64,000 nt of DNA from an uncultured Thermoanaerobaculia bacterium (lineage in GTDB: Bacteria > Acidobacteriota > Thermoanaerobaculia > Thermoanaerobaculales > Sulfomarinibacteraceae). The DNA lies in the NCBI GenBank assembly GCA_964420405.1, contig CAYQTL010000006.1, forward strand, positions 11,483-75,482. Reading direction: 5' to 3'. Position numbers and translations under genes: made by a program. The notes beneath the pieces are model-generated. The model searched no databases. It was not told the DNA's origin and worked only from the letters and a program-made list of their open reading frames with translations. This document shows positions 22,078-64,000 of the stretch, one piece after another. Positions within the stretch are counted from its first letter, which is position 1, and each line of letters starts with the position of its first letter.

Positions 22078-23037
22078 ATGCAGATGCGATCTCACGTACG
22101 GGTCGTGAAGACGATGGTTGCGGCGGCGGCGATGGTCTTCGGCCTGGTCGGACCGGCCGCGGCCGAGAGCATGCTCTCGTTCGTCCACGTCACGACGCCG
22201 GACACCGTCTCCGGGTTCCTCAGCAGGATCGATCACCCGTATCTGAACGACAACCCGGATGCGCGGGTGTTCGTCACCCAGGCGTGGGACTTCGCCGGCG
22301 GCCAGGGGTCCCAGAACGACCGCGCGGTGGGCGTGCGGTACGACACGGACTTCGCCGGCAACGGACGGTGGAGCATCTTCAACCAGGAGGTGCAGTACGC
22401 CATGGAGGCCGGGCTGCTGTTCCACGTCGTGGTCGCCGGGGAGGGCGCGTCGGTCTTTCCGCACCTCGCGAGCCATGACAGCATCCAGAACATCGCCTCG
22501 ACGGTGCAGTGCCCTCCCGAGTGGGACTTCGTCTGCTTCGGGGCGGCGTCGAACCTGGCGGTCGGCCACACGCTGGACGCGATGGGCCTGCGTGGCGCGA
22601 CGATGCCGGCGCCGTACTCGGTGCTGGGCGGTCCGTCGCCGGTGGTCCGCGCCGAGTCCACCGATCCGGACCACTACCCGAACCTCCGGCCCGGATCGCT
22701 GTTCTGGATCCTCGTCGGCAGCGAGGCGCTCGGCGGGGGGCGGGCCTTCACCCACACCGCGACCCCCGCCAACACCTCGTCGTGGGCGACCGTGCTCGAC
22801 GATCCGCGGCTCAACGGCCGCTCCGATGCGGTGCTGCTGGTGTCGCGCAGCGGCCCCGCCGGGCCCACCCAGAACGAGCACATCGGGCTGCTGTACGCCG
22901 ACGACGGCACGGGCGAGAAGTGGTCGGTGATCCACCAGACGACGACGCCGGTCCCGGACGGGGCGATGTTCACGGTCTTCCTGCCGCCGATCATGTCCGA
23001 CGGCTTCGAGAGCGGCGACCTGTCGTGGTGGGACTGA
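22078..23037 (+). CDS. secreted protein of unknown function with an internally duplicated domain and a C-terminal GFESGD tag (319 aa)
   Basis: ATG 22078 after GAGGAG, with a TATACT hexamer at 22053..22058. Signal peptide MQMRSHVRVVKTMVAAAAMVFGLVGPAAAES. N- and C-terminal domains align with each other (F.H..TP...S...D.P.LN..DA..V....QN...G..Y..D...WS......G..F.V). Ends IMSDGFESGDLSWWD. Confidence 0.85.
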   Translation: MQMRSHVRVVKTMVAAAAMVFGLVGPAAAESMLSFVHVTTPDTVSGFLSRIDHPYLNDNPDARVFVTQAWDFAGGQGSQNDRAVGVRYDTDFAGNGRWSIFNQEVQYAMEAGLLFHVVVAGEGASVFPHLASHDSIQNIASTVQCPPEWDFVCFGAASNLAVGHTLDAMGLRGATMPAPYSVLGGPSPVVRAESTDPDHYPNLRPGSLFWILVGSEALGGGRAFTHTATPANTSSWATVLDDPRLNGRSDAVLLVSRSGPAGPTQNEHIGLLYADDGTGEKWSVIHQTTTPVPDGAMFTVFLPPIMSDGFESGDLSWWD

Positions 23038-23077
23038 GCGTCGCTCTCCACCGCCGCACGACCACCCGCGGCAGGCC

Positions 23078-23141
23078 CGCAGCACGCCCCGAGAGGCGGG
23101 CGTCCGCCCGCTCCGATCCCGATCCCGATCCCGCTCCCGAT
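23078..23141 (+). repeat. (GATCCC)n element, copy C
   Basis: CACGCCCCGAGAGGCGGGCGTCCGCCCGCTCC followed by GATCCC x3 plus GCTCCC (core 23115..23141). Lies in the convergent intergenic region between 22078..23037 and the AbgT gene. Confidence 0.7.
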
Positions 23142-23301
23142 GGAACGAAGCGCCGACCTCTGACACGACATACCGGCACACCTGCCGACGGCCGCGCCCC
23201 GGCAGCCGGGTCCTATGCCCTCGCGGACCCGTCCGCGGCTCGCGCTCGATGCCCGAGGCGCCCGGGATCCGGATCGGACGACCCGGTCGGCAGTCCGCCC
23301 C

Positions 23302-24861
23302 CTACGGGTGCGTGTAGGTCGCCTGCAGCCCGAGCGGGATCCCGAGCGCCCAGTAACCGAGCAGGAACAGCGTCCACGCGACCAGGAACACGAGGCAGAA
23401 CGGCAGCATCAGGGCGACCACCGTGCCGATGCCGGTGGAGGTCACGTACCGCTTGCAGAACACCACCACGAGCGGGAAGTAGGGCATCAGGGGGGTGACG
23501 ATGTTGGTCGCCGAGTCGCCGACCCGGTAGGCAGCCTGGGTGAGCTCCGGCGAGATGCCGAGCTGCATCAGCATCGGCACGAAGATCGGGCTGAGCAGGG
23601 CCCACTTCGCCGAGGCCGAACCGACGAGCAGGTTGACGCCCGCCGTGAGGCCGATGACGCCGACGACGGTGGCGGCCGCGGGCAGCCCGAGCGACTGCAG
23701 GGTGCCCGCCCCCTTCACGGCGAGCAGGACGCCGACGTTGGAGCTCCCGAAGGCGTCGATGAACAGCGCCGCGAAGAACGCCATCACCAGGTAGTAGCCC
23801 ATCGACCCCATCGACTCGCTCATCCCGGCGACGATGTCGCGGTGGCTCTTCACCGTCCCGGAGGCGTAGCCGTACACGACCCCCGGGACCAGGAAGAAGA
23901 TCATGATCAGCGGCACGATCGACTGCATCAGCGGGGCCGCGAACGAGGTCAGGTCGCCGTCGGGGGCAGCCAGGGCCGTCCCGGGGAGCATCGACCATAC
24001 GGCGAACACGAGTGCGCAGGCGACGCCGCTGCCGAGCGCCAGGGACAGCGCCCTGCGGTCCCGCGCGGTCAGCTCCTCGATGTGCGGCATCTCGTCGGGG
24101 TCGCCGTCCACCGGGGTCCGGGCGAGGCGGGGCTCGATCACGCGGTCCGTGAGGTACCAGCCGAGCAGTACGATGAGGATGCTCGACACGCCGGTGAAGA
24201 GCAGGTTGCACAGAGGGTTCACGAGCCGGTCCGGGTCGACGATCTGGGCGGCCGACTGGGTGAATCCCTGCAGCAGCGGGTCGATGCCCGACGGCAGGAA
24301 GTTGGCCGCGAACCCGCCGGAGACCCCCGCGAAGGCCGCCGCGATGCCCGCGAGGGGGTGCCGTCCCGCCGCGTAGAACACCGCCCCGCCGAGGGGGATC
24401 ACCAGCACGTAGCCGGCGTCGGCCGCCGAGTGGGAGACGATCGCCACGAGGATCAGCATCGGCGTCAGCAGCAGCGCCGGCGTGAGGTTCATCAGCGCCT
24501 TGAGGCCGGCGTTCACCAGCCCCGTCTTCTCGGCGACTCCGACGCCGAGCAGCGCGACCAGCACAACGCCGAGCGGGTGGAAGCCGGTGAACGTCGGCAC
24601 CATCGTCGCGAGGAACTCTGCGAACGCCTCGCCGGACAGCAGGTTGACCACCCGGATCGGCTCGCCGGAGGCGGGATGTCGCTCGGTGAACTCGATCCCG
24701 GCGAGAAGGCTCGAGGCGACCCAGGTCAGGATGAGCATCGCGAAGAACAGGACCGCAGGGTCGGGCAGCGCGTTGCCGACGCGTTCGATCGCGTCGAGCG
24801 CCCGTCCCACCAGGGTGCGTCCGGGTCGAGGGTCCTTCTCGTCCGAGCGGGCGGCATGCAT
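23302..24861 (-). CDS. abgT: AbgT-family (p-aminobenzoyl-glutamate / MtrF-type) transporter
   Basis: 519-aa polytopic membrane protein. The N-terminal LDAIERVGNALPDPAVLFF matches the AbgT family signature. Gly/Ala/Leu-rich helices throughout. Confidence 0.85.
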   Translation of the reverse strand: MHAARSDEKDPRPGRTLVGRALDAIERVGNALPDPAVLFFAMLILTWVASSLLAGIEFTERHPASGEPIRVVNLLSGEAFAEFLATMVPTFTGFHPLGVVLVALLGVGVAEKTGLVNAGLKALMNLTPALLLTPMLILVAIVSHSAADAGYVLVIPLGGAVFYAAGRHPLAGIAAAFAGVSGGFAANFLPSGIDPLLQGFTQSAAQIVDPDRLVNPLCNLLFTGVSSILIVLLGWYLTDRVIEPRLARTPVDGDPDEMPHIEELTARDRRALSLALGSGVACALVFAVWSMLPGTALAAPDGDLTSFAAPLMQSIVPLIMIFFLVPGVVYGYASGTVKSHRDIVAGMSESMGSMGYYLVMAFFAALFIDAFGSSNVGVLLAVKGAGTLQSLGLPAAATVVGVIGLTAGVNLLVGSASAKWALLSPIFVPMLMQLGISPELTQAAYRVGDSATNIVTPLMPYFPLVVVFCKRYVTSTGIGTVVALMLPFCLVFLVAWTLFLLGYWALGIPLGLQATYTHP

Positions 24862-24912
24862 GGCGACGTCCTCGGAATGGGATCTGGTATCGGCGCGGTG
24901 GCTCGGTCAGAG

Positions 24913-24935
24913 AACACCGGAGAGCCCCCGGTGTT
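24913..24935 (-). terminator. hairpin after the hydrolase gene
   Basis: AACACCGG-N7-CCGGTGTT (8-bp stem), 66 nt downstream of the 25001 stop on the reverse strand. Confidence 0.4.
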
Positions 24936-25000
24936 TCCCGGGCGTCCGCGGGCCGGACGCGGGCAGGGCGTCGCGCGACGTCCGTCGGCCGCCTGCGCGC

Positions 25001-25858
25001 TCACGCCTCCGAGGCGGCAGACGTCCCGAGGAACGCGGACAGCTCGCGGTTGACGACGTCGGGGTGCTCGACGTGCGGGAGGTGGCCGCACCGGGGCAGG
25101 GTGACCAGCCGTGCGTGTGGCAGCCGCGCCGCGAGGGCCCGACCGCGGCGGACCGGCAGCCACGGATCCTGCTGGCCCCAGAGCACGAGGAACGGCGTGG
25201 CGATGTCCCCGAACCCGGCGCACGTCCGCTCGAACCCGGTCGAGAAGAAGTCCCGGGCGAGGCTGGCGAGGGTCGCGAAGTAGTCGGGCCGGCGTGCCGC
25301 GACCCGGTACTCGGCGAGGAGCTCCGGCGTGACGACCTTCCGGTCGGACACCAGCGACTCCAGGACCCGCCGGAGCAACCAGGAACCCGCGAGCCGCCGC
25401 GCGAGCCGGTGCAGGCCGGGAACCGCCATGGTCCGACGCCAGGGGCGGTAGGAAACGGGTGCCAGGAGGGCTGCTCGGGAGATCCTCGCCGTCGCGGAGA
25501 AGCACAGCCACAGTGCGATCGCGCCGCCCATCGAGTGACCGACGATGGCGCAGCGGTCGATCTCGAGGGCATTCAGCACGGCGAGCGTCCACGCGGCCTG
25601 GTTCTCGACGGTGAACCGGTACGTCGGCTCCGGCCGGAACGAGCGGCCGAGGCCGGGCTGATCGACGGCGACGACGCGGAGGCCGGCGGCCGTCAACGCC
25701 GGTGCCGTCCGGTGCCACGTGAAGATGGAGTCGCCGTAGCCGTGCACCAGGAGCACGGCTTCGCCGGTGCCAGCGTCGATGCAGTGGAGCGTCCGGCCGT
25801 CGATCGTGATGTCCCGGCGGTGGGGCTCCGCGAATGCCCGCCAGGCGTCGTCGACCAC
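25001..25858 (-). CDS. alpha/beta hydrolase fold protein (285 aa)
   Basis: GTG 25858 lies 2 nt after the MerR stop. LLVHGYGDS oxyanion region, nucleophile elbow GHSMGG, C-terminal CGHLPHVEHP catalytic His region. Confidence 0.85.
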   Translation of the reverse strand: MVDDAWRAFAEPHRRDITIDGRTLHCIDAGTGEAVLLVHGYGDSIFTWHRTAPALTAAGLRVVAVDQPGLGRSFRPEPTYRFTVENQAAWTLAVLNALEIDRCAIVGHSMGGAIALWLCFSATARISRAALLAPVSYRPWRRTMAVPGLHRLARRLAGSWLLRRVLESLVSDRKVVTPELLAEYRVAARRPDYFATLASLARDFFSTGFERTCAGFGDIATPFLVLWGQQDPWLPVRRGRALAARLPHARLVTLPRCGHLPHVEHPDVVNRELSAFLGTSAASEA

Positions 25859-25860
25859 GG

Positions 25861-26427
25861 CTAGATCTCGCCGGTCCAGGTCGCCCACCGCCGGATCCGA
25901 TCGATCTCGTCGTCGGGGAGGCACAGGAACTCGAGGAACTCGCGGTGGCGCTCCGGTGCATGCCGCTCGAATGCGGCGTGCCAGCGGCGCATGTCCTCGC
26001 GGGTGAAGCCCGCGGCCTCCAGCAGACCCGTCCACCGCTCGCGGTCCATGACGCCCACCCGACGGTCGCGGTGCTCGGTCCGGAGCAGTCCGACGATCAC
26101 CCGCTGCTGCTCCCGCAGCGCGGCGATCTCGTGGTTGAGCTCCTCCAGCCGCTGCTCGAGAACCGCCGCCAGCCGGTCGTCGGGGGCGTCGAGAATCGAG
26201 CGGATGTCCGCCAGCCGCACCCCGGCGGTGCGGTAGCGGCAGATCTGCTCCAGCCGCGCGATGTCGGCGGGGCCGTAGCGGCGGTAGTCGCCGTCACCCC
26301 GGCGGCACGGCGTCAGCAGACCGATCCGGTCGTAGTACAGCAGGGTGCTGCGGGACAGGCCGAACCGACGTCCGGCGCGGCCCACGGTCAGTCCCTCCGG
26401 CGGGATCTCATCGGTGGAGGTGGCCAT
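25861..26427 (-). CDS. MerR-family transcriptional regulator (188 aa)
   Basis: Internal ATG 26427. HTH GRRFGLSRSTLLYYDRIGLL, followed by a coiled-coil (LEQRLEELNHEIAALREQQ). Confidence 0.85.
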   Translation of the reverse strand: MATSTDEIPPEGLTVGRAGRRFGLSRSTLLYYDRIGLLTPCRRGDGDYRRYGPADIARLEQICRYRTAGVRLADIRSILDAPDDRLAAVLEQRLEELNHEIAALREQQRVIVGLLRTEHRDRRVGVMDRERWTGLLEAAGFTREDMRRWHAAFERHAPERHREFLEFLCLPDDEIDRIRRWATWTGEI

Positions 26428-26896: not shown

Positions 26897-27029
26897 GGGG
26901 ACCTCCATGCCCCGAAGATGGACCGTGAAGCTGTAGTCGGGTCAAGGCCCTCCGGAGGACTCCTGCCGATCTCGACAGAGTTCCTCCGTGCCCGCGTCCG
27001 TGTCGGTGCCCGGCGACACGGCCCGCGAG

Positions 27030-27075
27030 GCCCGGCTTCGACCGCCCCCGCCTTCGATCCCGATCCCGATCCCGA
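27030..27075 (+). repeat. (GATCCC)n element, copy D
   Basis: GGCTTCGACCGCCCCCGCCTTC followed by GATCCC x3 (core 27056..27075), between the SRPBCC gene start and the scramblase-like gene stop. Confidence 0.7.
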
Positions 27076-27198
27076 CACGAGGAGCCCGCGCCCGCGTCCG
27101 TGCGTGCCCGACAATGCGGCGGGTGGCAGCGGCGGCGGCAACGTCGGCGTGAGCCCGCGGGCGGGTCCGGTCGTCTCCTTCCCCACTCCGCGGCGGCC

Positions 27199-27981
27199 TC
27201 AGCGGTTCTGGTTGTTCTCGAAGAAGTCGAAGTCGACCGAGATGGCGGCGGCGAAGATCACCGCCTTCTGCTCGTCGGTCCAGCCGCCCTCGCCGAAGTC
27301 GACGCCGAAGTTGTCGGCGTCGGTGAAGTACTCGCGGCCGAGGCCGGACCACTTCTTGGCGATCATCGCCCGCTCCCGTCCGTCCGCGTCGAGGACCGGG
27401 AACGTCCAGATCCGGATGTGGCGGCTCTCGATGTGCGCGAAGACCTCGCCACGGGCGTCCTCGAGGTCGTACCGGCGGTTCAGGATCGCGAAGCGGCGCC
27501 GCACCCGCCCCAGCAGGCGTCCGGTGGGCCCCTTCACGTCGAGTGACGAGAACAGCAGGAAGAACGGCCGCTCGAGCGTCAGCACCACCTCGTCGGCCTC
27601 GGAGAGGACTGCGATCTCGAACGGTCGGTGCGAGCCCGCGACGATCCGGACGAGGGCGGCGCCGATGCCGGTGCCCTGCTCGACGATCGCGCCGAGCGGT
27701 CGCCGCATGGCGTCGGAGACGGCGTACTGGTTGCGCTGCTCGAGGTTGGCCAGGATCTCCCACCAGTGGCGGTGGTACTGCTCGATGTACAGGCGGTCGG
27801 CCTCGGAGATCATCCGGCGGAAGCCGAACGAGCCGAGGTCGCCGGCCGGCGCGACCGCCCGCGGCTGCCGGACCTCGGGATCCCGCACCTTGGCGAAGAT
27901 CACGCCGCACGCCTCGCACTCGGCGCCCGGCGCGCCCTGGTGGTGCCCGCACTTCGGGCACGTGCTCTCGACCCGGCTCAT
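27199..27981 (-). CDS. phospholipid-scramblase/LURP-one (PF03803-like) family protein with N-terminal zinc ribbon (260 aa)
   Basis: ATG 27981 after GGTGAGGA. N-terminal CPKCGHHQGAPGAECEACG (two CxxC). The body matches the scramblase pattern, including IAKKWSGLGREYFTDADNFGVDFGEGGWTDEQKAVIFAAAISVDFDFFE at the C-terminus. Confidence 0.8.
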   Translation of the reverse strand: MSRVESTCPKCGHHQGAPGAECEACGVIFAKVRDPEVRQPRAVAPAGDLGSFGFRRMISEADRLYIEQYHRHWWEILANLEQRNQYAVSDAMRRPLGAIVEQGTGIGAALVRIVAGSHRPFEIAVLSEADEVVLTLERPFFLLFSSLDVKGPTGRLLGRVRRRFAILNRRYDLEDARGEVFAHIESRHIRIWTFPVLDADGRERAMIAKKWSGLGREYFTDADNFGVDFGEGGWTDEQKAVIFAAAISVDFDFFENNQNR

Positions 27982-28081
27982 CGCATCCTCACCCGCACCA
28001 TCGCCCGTCTCCAGGCTACCAGAGACGGGTTGGGGGCGTCGGCCGTGCACCGGTTCGTGGGCCGCCACACCCTCCTCTCCC

Positions 28082-28200
28082 GATTCCGATCCCGATCCCG
28101 ATGGTGACGGCCGCCTTCAGCGGCAGCGACAGGAGACAGCGGCAGCGTCAGCGGCGGGGGACGGCGTCAACGGCTGAGGCGGGGGGAGCGACGGCAGCGT
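28082..28200 (+). repeat. (GATCCC)n element, copy E
   Basis: GATTCC GATCCC GATCCC GAT (28082..28102), followed by GGTGACGGCCGCCTTCAGCGGCAGCGACAGGAGACAGCGGCAGCGTCAGCGG, a right module like that of copy A. Lies in the divergent intergenic region. Confidence 0.7.
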
Positions 28201-28270
28201 GTCCCCTTTCCCGGCGGACCGGCGCGATCGGGTCCGAACGCGATCGAACCTACGGGAGGATCTGCGACCC

Positions 28271-31200
28271 ATGACCGACACACACCGTGCGCTGCACGTT
28301 TCCTTGTGGACCATGCTCGCGATCGCCCTGGCGGCGGGTGCCGCACGCGCACGGGCGGACTGCCCGCCCGATCCGCCGCCGCCCGACTGCGACAACAACG
28401 GGATGTTCGCCGGCGGGCGGTGGGAGCTGTCGGGGCTCTCGGGCACCTACACCCTCGCCGGCGACGAGGTGTTCTACCCGGACATCTTCTTCCCGGACTG
28501 GCAGGACGACTTCCACACCAGCGGCACGCTCACGGTGACGATGGGCGGCGGCCCGACCGAGAACTGGCTCGAGGTCGGGTGCGACGGCACCGTCACCGGC
28601 CAGCTCAAGGAGACCATCTCCGGCACCGTCGAGAAGATCGCCGACATCTCGTACTACGACCCGGTGACGTGTCCGTACCAGCCGGAGGACATGCTCTGGA
28701 ACCTCACGATCGAGCGGACCGTGGCCGTCACCGGCTCGGTCACCGGGACCGGCCAGCTCGACCTGGAGCTGTCGGTGGACACGGCGACCCTGGACTTCAA
28801 CGGCTCGCTCACTTTCGGGGTCGACTGCGTCGACTTCCACGGCACGGACTCCTTCCAGGACTTCGACCTCTCCGGCGACGTGGAGGAGATCCGGATGGCG
28901 GGGGGCTACGACCCGGTCGGCTGGAGGTACGAACCGACCATCACGCCGCTCGGCGCGACCACCTGGCTCGACGAGATCCTCCACCGGGTGGCCCTCAACG
29001 GAGGCCACCAGGGAACCGACGACACGGTGTTCGTGAACCCGACGCTCGACCCGCCGAACTCGACCCAGCCGCCGATCCAGTCCCACAACCTGTACCTGAT
29101 CCAGCACTCGGTGACGGTCACGGCCGAGTACCTGGAGGCCCAGGCCGAGCCCAAGGTGCCAGCGGTGACCTCGCTGGAGCTGCAGGAGCCCGCCCAGTAC
29201 CTGGCCGACGTCAGCGTGACGACTCGGGTGGTCGCCACCGTCGACTGGCGGGGCCTGACGCCGGGAACGGTGGAGTTCACCTACGGCGGGACGACCGAGA
29301 CGGTCCCGGGCGCGGACACCGTCACCTGGGATTTCGACGCCGGCCAGCCCGGCACGACCATCCAGGCCGTCGCCGAGGCTGGTGGCGAGCGCTCGCTGCC
29401 GTACGTCGTCAACACCCCCAAGGTGCCGGTCCCGGGCTGGGCCGGCTCGGCGTCCGACTGGAGCGGCAGCCCCGGAGTGAGCTACCGGGCGACGCTGGAC
29501 TGGCCGGTGTCGCTCGAGACCACCCGGACCCTCGACACGATCTCGCTGTTCACCGGCCCGTGGGGGATCTCCGGCTCGGCCTCCTCGGAGCTCAACGCCG
29601 CCGCCAGCTCGAGCGGCTCGCCCGCCGCCGGCGACATGACGACCCAGGCCGAGTTCCGGTTCGCGGGGCGCTCCGGCGCCTTCCACATGGAGGGACCCAA
29701 CGAGACCGTGCTCGCCTGCGACGGCCTCACGACGACCGGATCCGCCTCCGCCTCGACCTCCGGCGGCTCGTGGCAGAAGACCATCAATCCGCTGACGCTG
29801 ATTCCCGGCCTGGAGCCGGCGGTGTGCGGGCTCAGCGGCTTTTTGTGCGGTGTCGTCAACAGCGCGGGCGTCAAGGGCAGCGCGTCGGCATCGGTGACGG
29901 GCACCGCCACCTACACCGGCGCCGGCCCGGAGATCCTCTGGGACGGGGGCAGCGTCGGCGGCAGCCTGTCCGGCAAGATCGCCTTCGGAGCCTCCGTGCC
30001 GCCGCCGCTGTCGTCGGTGGCGGGGTTCGAGATCTACGGGTCCGCGACGGGCTGCCTCGAGTTCATGGTCGCGCCGTCGCTGGAGCTGACCGCGGTCGGC
30101 GGACACTTCGACGTCGAGGCCAGCGCGTGGTTCTTCGGCCTGGCGGCCGGGGTGGACGAGGACTTCCCGTTCGGCGATGCGTGCGCCAAGCAGACGCCGG
30201 ACGCCGCCGCCGCGTCGTCGTCGGGCTGGGTCCCGGCGGACGGCCAGCTGGCGATGGCGGCGGAGCGGGCCGGGGGGGTGCAGACCGGCATCGCGGTGTG
30301 GACCGAGACGCCCTCCGGCCAGGTCCGTCCTTCCGGGGACATCTGGTACCGGATCGAGACCGGCGGCGTCTGGGGACCGGGCATCCGGCTCACCGACGAC
30401 GCCGACTCCGACGTCGCACCGGCGGTCGATTTCGACGCGGCCGGTCGCGCGGTGATCGTGTACCAGCGCAGCACCGTGCCGCTGCCCGTCGTCCCTGCCG
30501 ACCTGCCGGCGTTCGCCGACGGCTACGAGCTGCACTGGGCGGCGATCGACCCGTCCACCGGTCTGACGGTCGGCGGCGGCCAGCTCACCGCCAACGGGTC
30601 GAACGACTTCGGCCCCCGCCTCCGGCGGGACGCCGCCGGCGGGCTGCACGTGTTCTGGCAGCGGGCGTCGGGCGTCGAGCTCGCCGGGACGGCGGCGGAT
30701 CCCGTCAGCATCCTGGCGGCGAGCTGGGACGCGTCGAGCGGCACCTGGAGCGGCGAGAGCGTCGCCGCCAGCGGCCTCGAGTCCACCTTCGGCTGGTCGC
30801 CCGCGGCCCACTCGGCCGACGACATGCTCGTGGGTCTCGTCGTGGACGTGGACGGCGACTTCGCCACCGCGGACGACCGCGAGGTCTTCCAGATCTCGAG
30901 GTCGTCCGGCTCCTGGGCGCTGCCGGTGCAGGTCACGTCGAACCTCGTGGCGGACGACTCGGTGCTGGCGGCGTTCGAGCCGGCCGGCGAGCCGGTGCTG
31001 CTGTGGCGGCGCGACGGCCAGGCGTGGCAGCTGCGGGGCGACCTGCACGGCCCGCCCGGGGCGGCCTTCACCTCGGCCGATCCGTCGGTGGACGACGGAA
31101 TCAGTGCCGCGCTCGGCGCCGGGACGATCGCCGCCGGGACCGACGGCGTGTCGGTCCTCTGGACCGAGGGCCTCGCGGCGAGCTTGACGCGCGAGAGTGC

Positions 31201-31441
31201 CGCTCCGCAGGGCTGGGAGGCGCCCACCTCGCCGTTCGCCACCGGCGACAGCGAGTCGGTCCACTTCCTGCGTTGGCTCGACGGCCGGCTGGTGGCGGGC
31301 TATGCGGTGCGGAGCTTCCAGAACGGCGCCGATCTCGCACCCACTGTGGAGCCCCGTTTCGCCGAGCTGCTGAACCCCGAGGTCTTCCGCGACGGGTTCG
31401 AGAGCGGGGACACCGGCCTCTGGAGCGTCGCGGTCCCGTGA
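28271..31441 (+). CDS. very large secreted protein of unknown function (1056 aa) with C-terminal GFESGD tag
   Basis: ATG 28271 after GGGAGGA. Signal peptide MTDTHRALHVSLWTMLAIALAAGAARARA followed by DCPPDPPPPDC. The C-terminal third has repeated blade-like units (IWYRIETGGVWGPGIRLTDD.., AVIVYQRS, LHVFWQRAS, PVLLWRRDG), suggesting a beta-propeller. Ends VFRDGFESGDTGLWSVAVP. Confidence 0.85.
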   Translation: MTDTHRALHVSLWTMLAIALAAGAARARADCPPDPPPPDCDNNGMFAGGRWELSGLSGTYTLAGDEVFYPDIFFPDWQDDFHTSGTLTVTMGGGPTENWLEVGCDGTVTGQLKETISGTVEKIADISYYDPVTCPYQPEDMLWNLTIERTVAVTGSVTGTGQLDLELSVDTATLDFNGSLTFGVDCVDFHGTDSFQDFDLSGDVEEIRMAGGYDPVGWRYEPTITPLGATTWLDEILHRVALNGGHQGTDDTVFVNPTLDPPNSTQPPIQSHNLYLIQHSVTVTAEYLEAQAEPKVPAVTSLELQEPAQYLADVSVTTRVVATVDWRGLTPGTVEFTYGGTTETVPGADTVTWDFDAGQPGTTIQAVAEAGGERSLPYVVNTPKVPVPGWAGSASDWSGSPGVSYRATLDWPVSLETTRTLDTISLFTGPWGISGSASSELNAAASSSGSPAAGDMTTQAEFRFAGRSGAFHMEGPNETVLACDGLTTTGSASASTSGGSWQKTINPLTLIPGLEPAVCGLSGFLCGVVNSAGVKGSASASVTGTATYTGAGPEILWDGGSVGGSLSGKIAFGASVPPPLSSVAGFEIYGSATGCLEFMVAPSLELTAVGGHFDVEASAWFFGLAAGVDEDFPFGDACAKQTPDAAAASSSGWVPADGQLAMAAERAGGVQTGIAVWTETPSGQVRPSGDIWYRIETGGVWGPGIRLTDDADSDVAPAVDFDAAGRAVIVYQRSTVPLPVVPADLPAFADGYELHWAAIDPSTGLTVGGGQLTANGSNDFGPRLRRDAAGGLHVFWQRASGVELAGTAADPVSILAASWDASSGTWSGESVAASGLESTFGWSPAAHSADDMLVGLVVDVDGDFATADDREVFQISRSSGSWALPVQVTSNLVADDSVLAAFEPAGEPVLLWRRDGQAWQLRGDLHGPPGAAFTSADPSVDDGISAALGAGTIAAGTDGVSVLWTEGLAASLTRESAAPQGWEAPTSPFATGDSESVHFLRWLDGRLVAGYAVRSFQNGADLAPTVEPRFAELLNPEVFRDGFESGDTGLWSVAVP

Positions 31442-34386: not shown

Positions 34387-35610
34387 TCACCCGACCGCGT
34401 CGGACCATCCGTCGAGGGTGCCCGACTCGAACCCGTCGCGGGCCAGGGGGAAGAGGATGCCCACCACCACGCCCTCGACGACCGTCAGACCGTACGGGAT
34501 CTCGTCCGGCAGGAGGTACCAACCATCGTAGGCGCCTCCCCACCCGAAGTTGAGATGGAACCGGCCGTCGCCGGAGTCGTAGCCGTCCACGACGAGGTTG
34601 TGGCCCGACTGGCCCGCGGGATCCACCACCGCCAGGTGCGCGGGTCGGCCGTGACGAATCTCGGCCTCCAGCAGGTGGTACAGCTCCGGATCCGTGTCGT
34701 CGAGGAGGACCACGTCCGTCTCGCCGAAGCGGAGGTAGGCGTCGAGAGCCTGTCCGACCCCGAAGGTGCCGGACACCGACGAGGTGAACACCTGCCGTGA
34801 CGCGACGCCGCACGCGAAGACGAGCGCCGCCGCTCCCTCGCCGGTGGCATCGTCTCCGTCCGCCCAACCCTGCTCCAGCGCCGCGAGGCTGGCGGACAGC
34901 TCGGCAAAGGAGGGGAACCCGTGGGAGGCATGGTCGTCGTCGATCCAGTAGTTCCGACCCGCGTAGAGGTGGTGGTAGTCGTCGCCGTCTCCGAGCGCCG
35001 TCCAGTGGTGGTGGCGGTGGTGGTTGACGATCTGGGCCATGGCGACGGCCGGGCACCCGGCCACGCTGCGGGCGGATGTCACCGGGTCGAGCGGGCACTG
35101 CGCGTTGTAGGGCGCGGTCTGGCTCCATTGCGTGGCGACCCAGCCGCCGGTCGGCGTGGAGCCGGCGGGCGGCCAGACCTGGGACGATGGCGACCGGAGG
35201 GGTGCCTGCCCGGAGGCGAGGCGCCGCCAGGCGTCGCGGCGTCCGGCGAGCATGTGCGCCGGGAGGTGAACGACCTGGTCGAGCCTCGTCGCGATGTCGG
35301 CGGCGAGCAGGGCCAGCACCGCCTCGGCGCCCATGCCCTCGGCGGGCGCGAATCCGGTGAGCGAGTAGCCGATGACGGGCGGCAGGGAGTCGTCCCCCGC
35401 AACGACCACGAACCCGGCGGGCTCGAGCTCGGCGACGTGGAACGACGGGAGGGCTCCTGCCGGGAACGACCGGACCGCCGTCACCGTCCGGTTCGGGCCG
35501 GCGGTCGTCGCCGCGACCCGGGCGGCGAGGGAGCCGCAGACCGGTGCGGCGGAGACGGTCGACAACGGAGCCGTCGCAAGGATGGCAATCCACAGAGGCG
35601 CAGCTCGCAT
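34387..35610 (-). CDS. peptidase C10 (streptopain/SpeB-like) family cysteine protease with C-terminal GFESGD tag (407 aa)
   Basis: Internal ATG 35610. Signal peptide MRAAPLWIAILATAPLSTVSAAP. WSQTAPYNAQCP...AGCPAVAMAQIVNHH (catalytic Cys region) and SGHNLVVDGYDS (catalytic His region) match C10 motifs. Ends LARDGFESGTLDGWSDAVG. Confidence 0.85.
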   Translation of the reverse strand: MRAAPLWIAILATAPLSTVSAAPVCGSLAARVAATTAGPNRTVTAVRSFPAGALPSFHVAELEPAGFVVVAGDDSLPPVIGYSLTGFAPAEGMGAEAVLALLAADIATRLDQVVHLPAHMLAGRRDAWRRLASGQAPLRSPSSQVWPPAGSTPTGGWVATQWSQTAPYNAQCPLDPVTSARSVAGCPAVAMAQIVNHHRHHHWTALGDGDDYHHLYAGRNYWIDDDHASHGFPSFAELSASLAALEQGWADGDDATGEGAAALVFACGVASRQVFTSSVSGTFGVGQALDAYLRFGETDVVLLDDTDPELYHLLEAEIRHGRPAHLAVVDPAGQSGHNLVVDGYDSGDGRFHLNFGWGGAYDGWYLLPDEIPYGLTVVEGVVVGILFPLARDGFESGTLDGWSDAVG

Positions 35611-42511: not shown

Positions 42512-44239
42512 CTACCGGGGCGGCCGGCCCGGGATCACGTCGGACCACTCCGTCAGGTCTCCCCACTCCATGTTGTCCGCCAGCAGGGCGCGCGCGGCAC
42601 GGAGCCACAGGTTGGGGTACCGCGCGCACGGACCGCCGGTGATGCCGCCCATGGTGTCCGGGTAGCACGGCGGCTTCGCGTAGATCCCGTACGGGTCCAC
42701 GAAGTAGTACTCGTTGTCCGTCGGATCCCGTCGCGCGAAGAAGATGTGCAGGTGGGTGTTCGGGCCTCCGAGGCCCCGCTTGCCGCCCGGCCCGGTGTTG
42801 CCCGCCCACCCGAGGAAACCGCCAGCCGGCACCACGTCGCCGGCCTCGACGGGGATGCTCTGGGCGTTGGTTCCCCAGTGGTCGGTGTCGAGATTGCGGG
42901 AGCCGGGGTCCTGGGTGCAGCCGGTGGCGTTGAGATGCGCCTCGTAGTCGGTCAGATTCTGGCCCGAGAGGGTCGGGATGGTCTGGCTCCACGCCAGGGA
43001 GCAGTCGTGGTCGGCACCGTCTCGCATGTGCATGTACAGCGTGCGGAAGGCGTCCGGGACGCCGTCCACGGTGTGGCTGACGACCACCGTGTTGCCGGAC
43101 CAGTTGTCCCATCCGACGAACTCGACGGTGCCCGCCGCCGCGGCCTCGAGTGCGAACGTGTCGACGTCCGGCCGCGAGTAGTCGATGGCGTGGTGGTAGC
43201 CACCGTTGTGGTACCGCCAGGTACCGACGCGGTTCACCTCCGGGTCGCTGAACGGCAGCCGGAGGAAGGGGGTCGCGTCGAAGTGGACCGCCGACATGCG
43301 GATCCAGTCGCCGCCGGCGTCCGAGACCACCGGCCAGCGGTACCACTCGTGGCCGGTGACGAAGTAGTTGTAGGAGTCGGGCGCGACGACCTGGTTGGCA
43401 CACTCGGCCGCGCAGCCGGGATAGCGTTCCATGTCGAGCAGGTGGAGGCCGTCGCCGGCCCAGTCGTGCCAGCGGGAAAGGAAGTTCTCGGCGTCGACAC
43501 CGACCCACAGCCCGTAGCCCGCGGCCGACTCGCGCCAGACGCCGGCCCAGCGACGCTGCTGGTTCACGTGGTAGGTCTCGAGGTCGATCAGTCGCAGGCC
43601 CTGGCCGGCGAGGTCGTCCCACTGGTCGAGCAGCGACTGCCAGGTCGCACCGACCCACAGCGCGTGACCGTCGCTGCCCTGCCTCCAAACGCCGGCATAC
43701 CTGCGCACGCCCCCGTCCTCCCAGGTCTCGAGGTCGATCAGCCGCAGGCCCGCCGACGACAGCCGGCGCCACTCCTGCTCGAACTCGGACCAGGTGCCGC
43801 CCGACCAGAGAGCGTAGGCGTCGGTGCCAGCCCGCCAGACGCCGGCGTACAGCCGGGTGCCGCCGGCGACGTACGTCTCGAGGTCGATCAGCCGCAGGCC
43901 CTGGGCCGCGAGGGTGTTCCACTGGTCGACGAAACCGTCCCAGGTATCGCCCGACCAGAGGGCGTAGCCGTCGGTGCCGGCCCGCCAGACCCCGGAGTAC
44001 ACCCGCTCGCCGTCGCGGACGTCCGTCTCGAGGTCCACGAGCCGGAGATCCTGGTCCGCGAGGTCCGACCACACCGTGAGGAAATCGTCCCAGCTGCCTC
44101 CGATCCACAGCGCGTGGCCCGAGGTGGTATCCAACCACGCTCCGGCATAGGCATCCTGCGCGGCCGCCGGGGCGGCCACGCCGAGCATCATCGCCATCGC
44201 CGCCGACGCGACCATGGTCGAGATCCCGTTCCTCCTCAT
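42512..44239 (-). CDS. secreted M23-family metallopeptidase with five N-terminal tandem repeats (BTRD1/polyglycine-hydrolase-like) and a degenerate C-terminal tag (575 aa)
   Basis: Signal peptide MRRNGISTMVASAAMAMMLGVAAPAAAQ. Five ~50-aa repeats Y(A/S)GVWR.G.D.(Y/H)ALW.G.TW..F...W..L...GLRLIDLET. M23 motifs HHAIDYS (HxxxD) and HLHIFF (HxH). Ends LLADNMEWGDLTEWSDVIPGRPPR. Confidence 0.9.
   Translation of the reverse strand: MRRNGISTMVASAAMAMMLGVAAPAAAQDAYAGAWLDTTSGHALWIGGSWDDFLTVWSDLADQDLRLVDLETDVRDGERVYSGVWRAGTDGYALWSGDTWDGFVDQWNTLAAQGLRLIDLETYVAGGTRLYAGVWRAGTDAYALWSGGTWSEFEQEWRRLSSAGLRLIDLETWEDGGVRRYAGVWRQGSDGHALWVGATWQSLLDQWDDLAGQGLRLIDLETYHVNQQRRWAGVWRESAAGYGLWVGVDAENFLSRWHDWAGDGLHLLDMERYPGCAAECANQVVAPDSYNYFVTGHEWYRWPVVSDAGGDWIRMSAVHFDATPFLRLPFSDPEVNRVGTWRYHNGGYHHAIDYSRPDVDTFALEAAAAGTVEFVGWDNWSGNTVVVSHTVDGVPDAFRTLYMHMRDGADHDCSLAWSQTIPTLSGQNLTDYEAHLNATGCTQDPGSRNLDTDHWGTNAQSIPVEAGDVVPAGGFLGWAGNTGPGGKRGLGGPNTHLHIFFARRDPTDNEYYFVDPYGIYAKPPCYPDTMGGITGGPCARYPNLWLRAARALLADNMEWGDLTEWSDVIPGRPPR
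43415..44155 (-). repeat. five tandem ~150-nt coding repeats inside the M23 peptidase gene
   Basis: The repeat units are listed under the CDS. The recurring DNA strings ctcgaggtcgatcagccgcaggcc appear at about 43570, 43720 and 43870. Confidence 0.8.
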
Positions 44240-53368: not shown

Positions 53369-53375
53369 CGCGGGA

Positions 53376-58382: not shown

Positions 58383-58410
58383 CGGCCCGGGCGGTCTCCC
58401 GCTCGGGCCG
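58383..58410 (-). terminator. intrinsic terminator after katG
   Basis: 12-bp stem (one mismatch) CGGCCCGAGCGG / CCGCCCGGGCCG on the reverse strand with a 4-nt loop, followed on that strand by TTTCCGTTTTCC. It lies 23 nt downstream of the katG stop. Confidence 0.6.
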
Positions 58411-58432
58411 CTCCGATGTCGCGACGGGGGAA

Positions 58433-61148
<2,716 letters not shown>

Positions 61149-61154
61149 GAGGGT

Positions 61155-61183
61155 AGTATGAGTCGAGTTCTGGATCGTGTCAA
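61155..61183 (-). promoter_or_regulatory. sigma-70-type promoter of the fur-katG operon, probably giving a leaderless mRNA
   Basis: On the reverse strand, TTGACA (61183..61178)-N17-CATACT (61160..61155). The -10 hexamer ends 4 nt before the fur ATG, so the predicted TSS falls at the start codon. Confidence 0.55.
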
Positions 61184-61363
61184 GATACGGATACGTTCAG
61201 AGAGAGCGATCGGCGTACGTGGGACCGGCCGTCGCCCGCCCTGCGGCTCCCGCCGTCGGCCCTGCGTCGCGCGTGCTCGAACCGGCGCTTCCCGCACGGA
61301 CGACGAACAACCCGGGCGGGGGAACCGCCCGGGTCTCCTGGTCGCAGTGCCGCGTGCGGACCG

Positions 61364-61822
61364 CTACTCCATGGGTTTCAGCGTCACCTCGCGCATCATG
61401 TTGCTGCCGAGGAACTTCCTCATCTCGAAGCGGGGCATGGCCATGGCCTCGCGTTTCTCCTCGTCGGCGGTCCCGGAGTGCTTGGTGGCGAGAGCCTGCC
61501 ACTTCGCCTCCATCTCGGCGTCGTAGTCAAGGGCGGCGGCGCCGTCCTTGTAGGCCGTGCAGAACATGACGTCCCAGTCCTCCGGGGAGGCCGGCTTCTG
61601 CACGAACAGACGCTGGTCCAGCACGAGGCCGGTCGCCTCGGCCTCCGCGTACATCGACGCCAGGTTCGTCCGCAGGTACTCCATGTAGTCGTTGAACTTG
61701 CCGGGTAGGGTGCGGTACGCGTCGCACTCCCACACCGGACCCTCGGTCCAGTGCTCCTGAGCATGCACTGTCGTCGCACCGACCATCAGACACACCATGG
61801 CCGCCACCAGCATTCGTCGCAT
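61364..61822 (-). CDS. secreted protein of unknown function (152 aa)
   Basis: Second ATG (61822) follows AGGAGG-N6. Signal peptide MRRMLVAAMVCLMVGATTVHAQ. Balanced composition rich in Lys/Glu/Met/Tyr, which is unusual in this GC-rich context and so very unlikely to be spurious. Confidence 0.85.
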   Translation of the reverse strand: MRRMLVAAMVCLMVGATTVHAQEHWTEGPVWECDAYRTLPGKFNDYMEYLRTNLASMYAEAEATGLVLDQRLFVQKPASPEDWDVMFCTAYKDGAAALDYDAEMEAKWQALATKHSGTADEEKREAMAMPRFEMRKFLGSNMMREVTLKPME

Positions 61823-61867
61823 CGCGCGCCTCCTCATCTGTCGCTTTCTGGACTGGATCTGAGTCGC

Positions 61868-61897
61868 AGTCTAGATAAAAGCACGCCCATCTGTCAA
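61868..61897 (-). promoter_or_regulatory. sigma-70-type promoter for the 61364..61822 gene
   Basis: On the reverse strand, TTGACA (61897..61892)-N18-TAGACT (61873..61868), about 45 nt upstream of the start codon in a locally AT-rich stretch. Confidence 0.5.
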
Positions 61898-61931
61898 CTT
61901 CGAGCTGTGCCTCCTTCGGCCGGTCACGCCG

Positions 61932-62306
61932 TCAGGCCGGGCCGGGGCTGCGTGATGCTGCGACTGAAGCTCGCCCGCCGGAGCGACGCCCGTTCACCTC
62001 CGAACGTGGGCGCGCGTCCCCGGCGTCGACGTCAGGTGCGTCCGGGCCACGGCCCCGAACGGCGGCTTCAGGGTCGATGACAGCGGGTGCGGTGACGGCG
62101 CTGGAACGTCCGGGCGCCGGGACGGGCGAGCCGTCGGCGATGAACGAGACTCGTGCCGGCGACGTGTCGAGGACCCGGACCAGCGCGCTTCCGGCCGACC
62201 AGAGCATCGAGCCGTCGTCGTTGAGCACGATGTTGTTTCCCTGGTCGAAGAGCCCGTCGCCGGCCCCCGGGGTCGTGTCGTAGGACGGGCCGACGGGGAC
62301 GCGCAT
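61932..62306 (-). CDS. hypothetical protein (124 aa), weak call
   Basis: High GC3 and protein-like sequence for MRVPVGPSYDTTPGAGDGLFDQGNNIVLNDDGSMLWSAGSALVRVLDTSPARVSFIADG, then decay into an Arg/Gly/Ala tail. The upstream extension of the track ORF runs into the palindromic element and is rejected. Confidence 0.3.
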   Translation of the reverse strand: MRVPVGPSYDTTPGAGDGLFDQGNNIVLNDDGSMLWSAGSALVRVLDTSPARVSFIADGSPVPAPGRSSAVTAPAVIDPEAAVRGRGPDAPDVDAGDARPRSEVNGRRSGGRASVAASRSPGPA

Positions 62307-62431
62307 CACGAGCTCGTCGGCGAGGCTGCGAGGCAGGCCGCCAGGCCGATGGCTGCGAGGGTTCGCGGGAGATCGGGGAGACGCATCGTCGGTGTTCTCC
62401 GGTCTGGACTCCTGGTCGGCGGAGATCCCCG

Positions 62432-62599
62432 CTAGGAGGTCGTAGGGCATAGATGGCGGATGGATTTCGGAGCGTCGTGAGATGCCCGTTTTCGGCGGAT
62501 TCGAGGCGCAGTACTCTGAGTACGGGCCGAGAATCCGCCGGAAACGGGCGCTCACGACGCCCGAAAGGCGCCGTCAGTCTATGCCCTACGCCCTCCTAG
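62432..62599. mobile_element. 168-nt palindromic (MITE-like) non-coding element
   Basis: Terminal inverted repeats CTAGGAGGTCGTAGGGCATAGA / TCTATGCCCTACGCCCTCCTAG. The arms pair along most of their length (..TTCGG.GCGTCGTGAG.GCCCGTTT.CGGCGGATTC..). The central palindrome GTACTC-T-GAGTAC is at 62511..62523. Lower G+C than the surroundings. A shorter copy lies at 53269..53368. Confidence 0.6.
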
Positions 62600-62895
62600 A
62601 GCTCGTCTCCGCGGTCGGGGGGCGTTCGGGGAACCTGGCTGCCGATTCTACCCGGTGTCCCGAACGCGACGAAGGGCCGGGCCGGCCCGGGGGGACGGCC
62701 CGCCGTCGAGCTCCCGGTCTCGCCGCGTCGGCGAGGGTGCAGCGGCCCGCTGCTCGCGCTCGGGCGTTCGCCGCGGATCGTGGAGGTGCGGACCCGCTGA
62801 GCGCACGGTGGTGCAGGCCGCGGGGGGCGGCGCATCCGGTGGAGACTACATCGGGAGGGGAGCCGCCGGTGCCCGCTTCGGGAGCGGGACACGAC

Positions 62896-62923
62896 CCCGG
62901 CGGGGGCCGGAGCCCCCGCCGGG
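62896..62923 (-). terminator. GC-rich hairpin downstream of the FG-GAP protein gene
   Basis: Perfect 12-bp stem CCCGGCGGGGGC / GCCCCCGCCGGG with a 4-nt loop, about 70 nt after the stop at 62992. A second 6-bp hairpin CCCGCT-TCGGG-AGCGGG lies just beyond it. No U-tract. Confidence 0.45.
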
Positions 62924-62991
62924 TGTTCCGACTGGTTGGCCGTTCCCGTCCGCGCCGGGACCGGCTGCGGAGTTGTCGGATCGCGGCGCGG

Positions 62992-64000
62992 CTACTCGGT
63001 TGCCGCCGACCAGCGGTCGGTGTCGCCGGGCTCGAAGTCGCCTGCGAACAGGGTCTTCGTCACTCGCGAGGCGGCCACCGACCAGCCGAACAGGTCGCCG
63101 TCCTCGCAGTCTCCCTGGACGCCGGTGAAGCAGTGGTTGAAGTACTCGTTGTCGAGGTCGAGGCCGAGGGAGGATCCGTACACGAGGAAGATCCACCCCA
63201 TGTCGGTGAGGACGAAGTCCTCCCACGGGCTGGTCAGGACGAGATCGCCGTAGCCGTCGCCGTCGAAGTCGCCCGAGGCGAGGCGGAAGGCGAAGCGGTC
63301 CTCCGCGACCACCGACCCGATGTCGAGGTTCGCCTCGCCGATCATGGAGGACCCGCTGGTGTCGAGGCCGAGGGCGGAGCCCGGGATCACGTGGGCGACG
63401 CCGGCCTGGTCCGCACCGCTCCAGTTCTCGTACGGCGATCCCACCGCGAGGTCGTCGAAGCCGTCGCCGTCGAAGTCGCCGGTGGCGAGGGAGAACCCGA
63501 ACCGGTCGTTCGACTCGCGGTCGGTTCCGGGGACGTACTCCTGGTGGATCTGCTGGCCGCCGACGTTCGTCAGGCCCGCCGCCGAGCCGCGGATGACGTG
63601 GAGCCAGCCGCAGTCGGTGTACGCGTCCAGATCCTCGTCGGGGATGCCGACCGCGAGGTCGTCGTAGCCGTCGTTGTCGAAGTCGCCCGCGGCGAGGGCG
63701 AAGCCGTAGTGGTCGTAGGCCTCGTTGACGCCTGCGAACGTCATCCGCTCCTGGTGCCAGAAGTCCAGGGCGGGGCTCGTGACCAGGCCGGTCGGGTCTC
63801 CCCAGACGACCGCCACCAGTCCGGCGCTCTCGGTTCCGGCGCCGAAGGTCTCTCCGGTGGAGCCGATGGCGAGGTCGTCGTAGCCGTCGCCGTCGAAGTC
63901 GCCCACGGCCAGCGACGCCCCGAAGAGGTCGTTCGGCTCGGTGCCGCCGGCCTCGATGTCGTCCTGCTCCCAGTGCTCCGAGCCCGACGACGTGAGGCCC
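62992..64000 (-). CDS. FG-GAP/integrin-alpha-like repeat protein with C-terminal GFEPGD tag (3' part; gene continues beyond the window)
   Basis: Repeats FG.SLA.GDFDGDG.DDLAVG (FGFSLATGDFDGDGFDDLAVGSP, YGFALAAGDFDNDGYDDLAVGIP, FAFRLASGDFDGDGYGDLVLTSP). The frame stays open upstream of the track start (..FGASLAVGDFDGDG at 63990..63900) to position 64000. Ends LFAGDFEPGDTDRWSAATE. Confidence 0.9.
   Translation of the reverse strand, partial: GLTSSGSEHWEQDDIEAGGTEPNDLFGASLAVGDFDGDGYDDLAIGSTGETFGAGTESAGLVAVVWGDPTGLVTSPALDFWHQERMTFAGVNEAYDHYGFALAAGDFDNDGYDDLAVGIPDEDLDAYTDCGWLHVIRGSAAGLTNVGGQQIHQEYVPGTDRESNDRFGFSLATGDFDGDGFDDLAVGSPYENWSGADQAGVAHVIPGSALGLDTSGSSMIGEANLDIGSVVAEDRFAFRLASGDFDGDGYGDLVLTSPWEDFVLTDMGWIFLVYGSSLGLDLDNEYFNHCFTGVQGDCEDGDLFGWSVAASRVTKTLFAGDFEPGDTDRWSAATE

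Follow-up and report, generated by a model that had tools for sequence, protein, structure and literature searches.

A short C-terminal tag is shared by five otherwise unrelated secreted proteins in a 64-kb stretch of DNA (hereafter the window; contig CAYQTL010000006.1, positions 11,483 to 75,482) from an uncultured Thermoanaerobaculia bacterium of the phylum Acidobacteriota. We propose, at a probability of roughly 0.55, that this tag serves the Thermoanaerobaculia (Acidobacteriota) as a C-terminal signal for envelope sorting that is specific to their lineage. It belongs, as a kind, to the C-terminal sorting tags, and no model, structure or paper that we searched describes it. The sequence-only reading that drew attention to it had proposed a modular C-terminal signal serving secretion, surface attachment or maturation; the idea of a sorting signal is now backed by the spread of the tag within the lineage, its precise end, the 53 or more cargo families that carry it, its conservation among orthologues and, in orthologous C10 peptidases, its replacement of the C-terminal domain of the type IX secretion system (T9SS).

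Five tagged proteins in the window

The five tags and their cargo proteins are listed below. Tag scores are those of an independent hidden Markov model (HMM) built from 140 tails, all from other genomes.

22078..23037, + strand: cargo 1, DUF7452 protein of 319 aa (PF24249, E = 1.3e-35), with a Sec signal peptide ending …GPAAA and followed by ES
22990..23034, + strand: tag 1, short form, IMSDGFESGDLSWWD then stop; 19.1 bits
28271..31441, + strand: cargo 2, secreted protein of 1056 aa, no Pfam or NCBIfam match
31382..31438, + strand: tag 2, canonical form, VFRDGFESGDTGLWSVAVP then stop; 34.4 bits
34387..35610, - strand: cargo 3, Inhibitor_I69 + Peptidase_C10 cysteine peptidase of 407 aa, with a signal peptide
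34390..34446, - strand: tag 3, LARDGFESGTLDGWSDAVG then stop; 15.8 bits
42512..44239, - strand: cargo 4, BTRD1 x3 + Peptidase_M23 protein of 575 aa, with a signal peptide
42515..42586, - strand: tag 4, degenerate, extended and marginal, LLADNMEWGDLTEWSDVIPGRPPR then stop; 5.8 bits
62992..>63999, - strand: cargo 5, FG-GAP repeat protein (Pfam FG-GAP, E = 6.8e-35), 5′ end beyond the window
62995..63051, - strand: tag 5, LFAGDFEPGDTDRWSAATE then stop; 12.9 bits

All five C-termini read in the sequence-only description were reproduced exactly. Its further observations also held: the tag lies near the C-terminus (each match is at most 10 codons from the stop), it has neither a transmembrane (TM) helix nor a basic tail, and it is selective, other signal-peptide proteins in the window being without it. 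The domains in front of the tag are unrelated, as had been stated, and Pfam assigns them to DUF7452, no family, I69 + C10, BTRD1 + M23 and FG-GAP, respectively. Sec-type signal peptides were present in four of the four tagged proteins with a complete N-terminus. The last residue of a tag is P, G, E, D or R, and the tag of the M23 protein is extended by five residues (GRPPR). Tag 2 fits the strict DNA pattern used in our collection scans, and the FG-GAP homologues of cargo 5 among the fetched loci have canonical tags at their ends. The M23 peptidase fused to three BTRD1 repeats (PF17660, polyglycine-hydrolase-like structural repeats) looks like an unusual combination. A small secreted protein of 197 aa without a Pfam match (window 9965-10558, - strand) ends differently, in …LVPVELMSFTIE.

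The regular expression [FMLIVWY]E.G[DNT].{2,4}W[SDT], run on the six-frame translation of the window, matched five times and only at the five tag sites, against an expectation of 0.065 matches in total and 0.03 near a stop codon (maximum 1; 200 first-order Markov simulations of the window). Each match lies in the coding frame of a long open reading frame (ORF) with high G+C at third codon positions (GC3). With the independent HMM, the five tagged ORFs took ranks 1-5 among 510 six-frame ORFs, the best background ORF reaching 4.4 bits. Because the M23 tag barely exceeds this background, it is marginal and unconfirmable alone, whereas the other four of the five tags originally claimed are clear. 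The synonymous codons used differ among the five tag-coding stretches and divergence starts right past the stop codon; the likeness is therefore at the protein level, and a copied DNA cassette is ruled out.

A chance match or compositional artefact, for instance of G/D/E/S-rich frames, might be expected in a genome of 72% G+C (range 70-75% across the window), and the M23 tag, hardly above background, would suit that explanation. It is opposed by the excess of matches over the simulated expectation and by their location in real coding frames as judged by GC3. Moreover, the tag was also found in loci of only 54-60% G+C, and a library profile built from nine tags gave 1,613 matches at E ≤ 1e-3 when searched against 1.84 billion representative proteins. 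We accord this explanation next to no probability, and for four of the five tags it is refuted. The exhaustive profile search was used instead of a word-indexed search with the tag alignment, which returned only 4 matches (few 5-mers are common to the tags).

Spread, cargo and choice of anchor

To map the tag across genomes, we scanned one genome per GTDB species with the degenerate DNA pattern DGFESGD-x3-W-x5-stop, which identified at least 120 loci, all in metagenome-assembled genomes (MAGs). Among the 120 loci listed, 105 were labelled Acidobacteriota, Thermoanaerobaculia, 'Holophagae', Multivoradales or Sulfomarinibacteraceae, and most of them Thermoanaerobaculia. Eight were labelled only 'bacterium' and seven otherwise, some of these labels being doubtful, for example that of a 'Crocinitomicaceae' contig with 60% G+C. 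Judged from the matches listed (at least 120 loci), a restriction of the tag to this lineage is strongly indicated by the sequence comparisons.

The position and length of the tag were defined in 152 library proteins examined in detail (the top matches together with P0001-P0004). In 61 of them the motif forms the extreme C-terminus, and in 33 of these 61 exactly 14 residues run from the second F to the end. Within this fixed-length group the residues F, D, F, E, G and W are invariant, the last residue is P in 29 proteins and V precedes P in 24, giving the canonical consensus [LI]-F-A-D-G-F-E-S-G-D-T-S-[RA]-W-S-A-x-V-P-COOH. The ratio of internal to terminal instances (276:61) is no estimate of frequency, since the top-match list was ranked by summed score and favours multi-copy proteins. 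In Thermoanaerobaculia loci, 26 non-seed instances were C-terminal and 10 internal, 8 of the latter looking like chance matches to the loose core of the motif. The sequence-only reading had held that equally frequent internal occurrence would speak against a C-terminal signal; within the lineage the motif is almost exclusively terminal, while elsewhere it is internal and present in many copies.

Counting the window with the fetched loci, we obtained 167 tagged ORFs, and two or three often lay within 8 kb; 97 of the 167 match 53 different Pfam families, of kinds common among surface or secreted proteins. FG-GAP is the commonest passenger family among the tagged proteins elsewhere; others include Peptidase_S8, Beta_helix, BNR, Big_9, cadherin-like, GSDH, PA and trypsin-like domains, as well as cytochrome c7, NHL, LVIVD, PMP repeats, M14, RCC1 and Calx-beta. 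In other phyla, it is this repertoire of proteins that bears PEP-CTERM, LPXTG or T9SS signals. Using a heuristic for signal peptides, we found a signal-peptide-like start, mostly of the signal peptidase I type, in 94 of 117 complete tagged ORFs versus 177 of 432 untagged neighbours.

The strongest functional clue comes from the choice of anchor in C10 peptidases. Of the 38 closest homologues of the window C10 peptidase (identity ≥50%), 37 end in the tag, the exception (P0195) having a substituted core, and the tag ends the protein about 53 residues past a conserved GWGG motif. The nearest named relative comes from a Thermoanaerobaculales MAG. C10 homologues of Bacteroidales (some named PrtT), Cloacimonadota and Eisenbacteria, at 45-53% identity, instead have the T9SS C-terminal domain PF18962 from the same junction, and Thermoplasmatota homologues have a hydrophobic C-terminal anchor there. 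Because the tag and PF18962 occur at the same C10 junction, the tag holds the slot of established sorting signals and, by this comparison, is positionally interchangeable with known sorting domains. Across the 37 tagged C10 orthologues, conservation of the tag's D, G, F, E, G and W reaches 95-100%, whereas the top residue at passenger positions has a mean frequency of 0.67. Similarly, seven of seven full-length DUF7452 orthologues (47-93% identity) keep a terminal DGF[ED]SG[DG]xSWW, and the tag does not vary even between orthologues with an identity as low as 47-60%. Together with the differing codons of the tags, these patterns indicate that the tag is under purifying selection at the protein level.

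Eight archaeal-labelled C10 homologues (P0255, P0267, P0273, P0275, P0283, P0284, P0286 and P0287), one of them named Thermoplasmatota archaeon, are about 50% identical to the bacterial ones. They end in a hydrophobic segment (…FPHAFPILRLLLNH), which looks like another type of anchor on the same enzyme.

By analogy, the tag may work most like the T9SS C-terminal domain (PF18962/TIGR04183). Both stand at the extreme C-terminus of Sec-exported proteins without a TM helix, are borne by diverse passengers (peptidases, FG-GAP, Ig-like, beta-helix), occur (the tag presumably) in many copies per genome and start from the same junction in orthologous C10 peptidases. However, the T9SS domain is a folded Ig-like beta-sandwich of about 70-100 residues, whereas the tag, as the sequence-only reading had pointed out, is far shorter (19-24 residues) and is predicted to be unstructured alone. 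The two have no sequence similarity, and neither the five window proteins nor their isolated 28-residue tails matched PF18962 at E ≤ 10. In an AlphaFold2 (AF2) model of the window C10 peptidase (69 sequences; mean predicted local distance difference test score, pLDDT, 86.6), the catalytic domain scored 80-98 and no folded domain followed it; residues 389-407, which form the tag, had a pLDDT of about 50 and made no contacts or packing. Such a tail would fit a free tag that is read in trans. An AF2 model of the DUF7452 protein (8 sequences) was uninformative, with a mean pLDDT of 45. To our knowledge, T9SS is not known from Acidobacteriota, and the window contains no secretion-system genes, none of SprA/Sov, PorV, PorU and GldK-N being present.

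LPXTG, PEP-CTERM, GlyGly-CTERM and MYXO-CTERM resemble the tag in being short, modular, lineage-specific motifs near the C-terminus of secreted proteins. The signals of sortases, exosortases and rhombosortases, however, combine a motif with a hydrophobic TM helix and a basic cluster, whereas the tag ends …W-S-x-x-V-P with no hydrophobic run. None of the NCBIfam sorting-domain models matched, in line with the distinction from these four signals drawn in the sequence-only reading. Substrates of type I secretion systems of the RTX kind lack an N-terminal signal peptide and carry GGxGxD repeats ahead of a C-terminal signal that stays uncleaved, in contrast to the four complete tagged proteins, which have Sec signal peptides and neither RTX repeats nor a Pfam match to them. 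The beta-signal read by the beta-barrel assembly machinery is an aromatic-ended strand (usually F) on a beta-barrel, unlike the varied tag ends, and the passengers here are of soluble type.

In scans of the five window proteins and their isolated 28-residue tails at E ≤ 10, no model in Pfam-A (2025) or NCBIfam (release 20.0, June 2026) covered the tag. In the Protein Data Bank (PDB) the tag profile gave chance-level matches only, for example to the N-terminal 'GDFETGNLSGWT' of the CBM-like chain 8xmz, and the internal jelly-roll-type domain described below had no significant match. Our literature searches on the motif, on sorting or secretion in Thermoanaerobaculia, on T9SS in Acidobacteriota and on choice-of-anchor yielded nothing relevant. 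The earlier impression that the tag has no named family thus stands for the resources searched.

The closest relative of the window that we found is the JGI metagenome contig L122 (3300017698; 199 kb), with 86-99% nucleotide identity over the aligned segments; exact look-ups of two window proteins had no match in the assembly collection. L122 is without 3.27 kb corresponding to window 28045-31317, nearly the whole of the 1056-aa tagged gene, and keeps (near its position 13344) the last 124 nt of that gene, tag codons included, as a remnant.

Jelly-roll likeness and phage lysis cassettes

The highest-scoring library matches were multi-copy proteins in which each match opens a repeat of about 190-220 residues (…IFADGFESGDLSAWSSAxTDGGxLSVS…YFDDFxS). 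These repeat starts show a weak alignment to PF14099 (Polysacc_lyase; positions 1-40) and CBM_4_9 (positions 3-46), and the aligned region is, on the evidence of these alignments, the first strand of a concanavalin-like jelly roll. Jelly rolls of this kind (PF14099, CBM_4_9, Laminin_G_3) share with the tag ('FxDGFESGxLSxW…') the N-terminal strand motif F-x-D-x-F-E-x-G-x-x-x-x-W. In the jelly-roll domain, however, a further 150-200 beta-sandwich residues follow the strand, and these are missing after the window tags; elsewhere the strand stands in its domain context, whereas in the lineage the tag is attached to unrelated folds. After each window tag the stop codon comes 1-10 codons past the W, no remainder of a domain lies downstream in any frame, and the next gene starts 80-265 bp downstream or is on the other strand. 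The five window proteins gave no Pfam match to PF14099, CBM_4_9 or Laminin_G_3. The tag is thus an orphaned copy of the jelly-roll first strand or hairpin. The sequence-only reading had named the terminal strand of a known lectin or CBM fold as an outcome that would undo its proposal; globally the motif does belong to such a fold, as its first strand, but within the lineage it does not.

Stand-alone units were also seen. P0021, P0030, P0031, P0037, P0039, P0043, P0050 and others end in two or three tandem units, repeated every 20-25 residues. P0032 (position 102) and P0033 (position 83) have mid-protein orphan units, which gives the look of two fused tagged modules. P0019 and P0021 have an extra orphan strand after a complete domain. 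The tandem and extra stand-alone units indicate that the unit acts as an autonomous module.

In this respect the tag recalls dockerin/cohesin pairs and choline-binding repeats (about 20 residues), which are likewise short acidic or aromatic C-terminal modules on secreted enzymes; the tandem 20-25-residue units of some tagged proteins add to the likeness, and docking in trans is presumed. Dockerin and choline-binding modules, however, need two or more repeats, whereas the tag is usually a single unit. A type I dockerin spans about 60-70 residues and has helices and two segments, each of about 22 residues, that bind Ca (D-x-N-x-D-G…D), compared with the single 19-residue unit of the window tag. 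No Dockerin or CW_binding match was obtained with the five proteins or the isolated tails, and we found neither EF-hand-like spacing nor a cohesin-like partner.

The tag also occurs in viruses. The strict pattern matched only 3 of 2.9 million IMG/VR viral contigs, each time in a lysis-cassette layout:

L125 3284-4886, - strand: lysis-cassette region with tagged gene
L126 318-1640, - strand: lysis-cassette region with tagged gene
L127 9733-11322, + strand: lysis-cassette region with tagged gene

All three tagged phage proteins have 141-156 aa and consist of an N-terminal hydrophobic segment, a Pro/Thr-rich linker or PKD domain, and the tag. In all three contigs the tagged gene lies directly downstream of the endolysin gene (Amidase_3 in two, Amidase_2 in one) and overlaps it, and the protein encoded just upstream of the endolysin has a coiled coil and a single TM segment. 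The passengers of L125 and L127 are unrelated to that of L126. In phage lysis cassettes, spanin genes sit directly after the endolysin gene. The tagged phage proteins share with spanins (Rz/Rz1, the unimolecular T1 gp11) a small size, a gene directly downstream of the endolysin, a single hydrophobic segment at the N-terminus and a periplasmic part that is extended or beta-rich. The o-spanins and u-spanins known so far are attached to the outer membrane through an N-terminal lipoprotein anchor, whereas the candidate tether here is the C-terminal tag; the likeness is purely positional. By this analogy, the cassettes agree with a role of the tag as an outer-membrane tether in the host envelope. 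A relaxed pattern found C-terminal tags in seven more viral contigs, most of them without an amidase-like ORF in the fetched stretch, and the Thr variant DGFETGD had no match among viral contigs.

About 29 further phage contigs (within L129-L164; 39-57% G+C) carry FSDGFESGDFSAWTGT… where a domain of 200-450 residues (…HHGTYS…) begins, in many cases close to the N-terminus of the protein or past a conserved 'YLxxFFTE(I/L)F' segment. Judged by their sequences, these IMG/VR proteins appear to be one family with a jelly-roll domain.

Proposed mechanism, alternatives and gene neighbourhoods

In the mechanism that we propose, the cargo would be exported across the inner membrane by Sec, as its N-terminal signal peptide indicates. 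The free, flexible unit of about 20 residues, [LI]-F-x-D-G-F-E-S-G-D-x-S-x-W-S-x-x-V-P, could then be read in trans by a periplasmic or outer-membrane component, which would take the cargo to the outer membrane, or across it, and probably keep it associated. The tag would in this way be a functional analogue of the T9SS C-terminal domain. Given its derivation from a jelly-roll strand or hairpin, the most likely mode of recognition, still speculative, would be beta-strand or hairpin docking onto a receptor. A larger picture, which we put forward only tentatively and would not bet on, is that of a new outer-membrane sorting or attachment system of Thermoanaerobaculia with a 20-residue orphaned strand or hairpin as its signal. 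Such a system would have a dedicated beta-strand-complementing receptor, might serve hundreds of surface proteins per genome in the role that T9SS plays in Bacteroidota, and might have had its tag copied by phages for tethering spanin-like lysis proteins without a lipid anchor.

Several points weigh against envelope sorting. The neighbourhoods of tagged genes (849 ORFs clustered from all fetched loci, at least 120 and mainly the 120 genome loci listed) yielded no receptor, translocon or processing enzyme. All sequences come from MAGs and metagenomes, and the restriction to the lineage is indicated, short of proof, by the loci listed (at least 120). Elsewhere the motif is simply an ordinary part of a fold, and internal or tandem units are odd for a pure export signal and fit a binding module better. 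Low AF2 confidence on a 19-residue tail is weak evidence, as such models go, and the phage argument, resting on only two independent protein families, is a lead, not proof.

The alternative to which we give most room, while still thinking it improbable, is that the unit is not a secretion signal at all; it would be a self-contained, non-covalent anchor or docking module, a small aromatic and acidic beta-hairpin. In the manner of dockerin-cohesin or choline-binding modules, it would bind a glycan, an outer-membrane protein or a receptor of jelly-roll type whose first strand is missing, with any export across the outer membrane left to a general route. The origin of the unit as an edge strand of a lectin-like fold points this way, as do the orphan strands past full domains in P0019 and P0021 and the phage proteins in spanin position, which need an outer-membrane tether and not export. 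The tandem units (P0021, P0030, P0031, P0039, P0050) and internal orphans (P0032, P0033) would suggest avidity. Yet most cargo is single-copy with a conserved free V-P end, a lone hairpin of 19 residues is small for a module that binds by itself, and the receptor was not found in the neighbourhood search. The T9SS domain that the tag replaces is itself both export signal and anchor, so that on this point docking and sorting fit equally.

We regard as clearly less probable a signal for maturation or quality control, by which a periplasmic C-terminal-processing protease or PDZ protein would govern whether the cargo is activated (zymogen latency) or turned over. A conserved free C-terminus, such as the …V-P-COOH end of the tag, is a feature recognised by PDZ domains and tail-specific proteases, and several passengers are peptidases (C10, M23, S8, M14, trypsin-like). 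Most passengers, however, are non-enzymes (FG-GAP, Big_9, cadherin-like, beta-helix, cytochromes), a terminal proline is an atypical PDZ ligand, and some variants (M23, P0004, L055) have residues beyond V-P. The replacement of the T9SS sorting domain, too, favours sorting over turnover. Least credible of these three is a tag without any role in trans, being either a vestige of a truncated C-terminal jelly roll or a strand needed to complete the fold of the passenger itself. Elsewhere a real domain does start with the identical motif, and L122 shows that a tag can survive as a deletion remnant. Against this, independent truncation at one residue, the V-P end, in more than 50 families is implausible, the core is conserved like catalytic residues across orthologues of about 50% identity, and the short distance to the next gene (80-265 bp) leaves no room for the rest of a domain. 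Nor do the unrelated passenger folds, or the AF2 model that leaves the tag unpacked on the C10 fold, suit a completing strand.

If the tag is an envelope-sorting signal, its value would lie in what comparable signals have given. LPXTG, PEP-CTERM, the T9SS C-terminal domain and others each led to a dedicated envelope machine, and C-terminal sorting signals are the main route for predicting surface proteomes from genomes. The proteins that the tag marks are many and varied (peptidases, adhesin-like repeat proteins, redox proteins), and current annotation resources are blind to it. Its host class comprises widespread, essentially uncultured Acidobacteria of soils, sediments and wastewater, for which a tag model would define the surface and secreted proteome and give a handle on the machinery by phylogenetic profiling. 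It would also be an evolutionary oddity, a single strand of a common lectin-like fold freed and reused as a signal, apparently also in phage lysis cassettes.

The neighbour families that recurred among the loci listed were serine/threonine kinase-tetratricopeptide repeat (STK-TPR) kinases (10), sulfatase-family proteins (5), extracytoplasmic function (ECF) sigma factors (4), MscS (4) and ABC ATPases (4). As processing or sorting partners we dismissed them, these being generic, abundant families. The HExxH membrane protein (20903..21496), which lies next to the DUF7452 gene and to which the sequence-only reading had drawn attention, did not recur near tags in the 120 loci listed and was rejected; it has no Pfam match, and its region is kept only in the close relative L122. 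STK-TPR kinases adjoin tagged genes in L014, L017, L027, L032, L033, L045, L060, L091, L111 and L119, and those near tags are often paired with a PF07638-type ECF sigma factor. Some tagged proteins may be outputs of ECF/STK regulatory modules; because both families are abundant in such genomes, the association may be due to chance.

Some further features of the window were noted. At 27199-28116 (- strand), a region that aligns with L122, the window encodes a bacterial homologue of eukaryote-type phospholipid scramblases (PF03803, E = 1.9e-40), whose N-terminus begins with a CxxC stretch resembling a zinc ribbon. The region of a PAS-rich hybrid histidine kinase (window 17291-20901) is, like most of the 1056-aa tagged gene, missing from L122. 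Finally, window 58433-63999 and positions 14169-19519 of L001, an unrelated ENA contig with two tags of its own, have in common the gene order tagged repeat protein, FUR-family regulator and catalase-peroxidase (PF00141).

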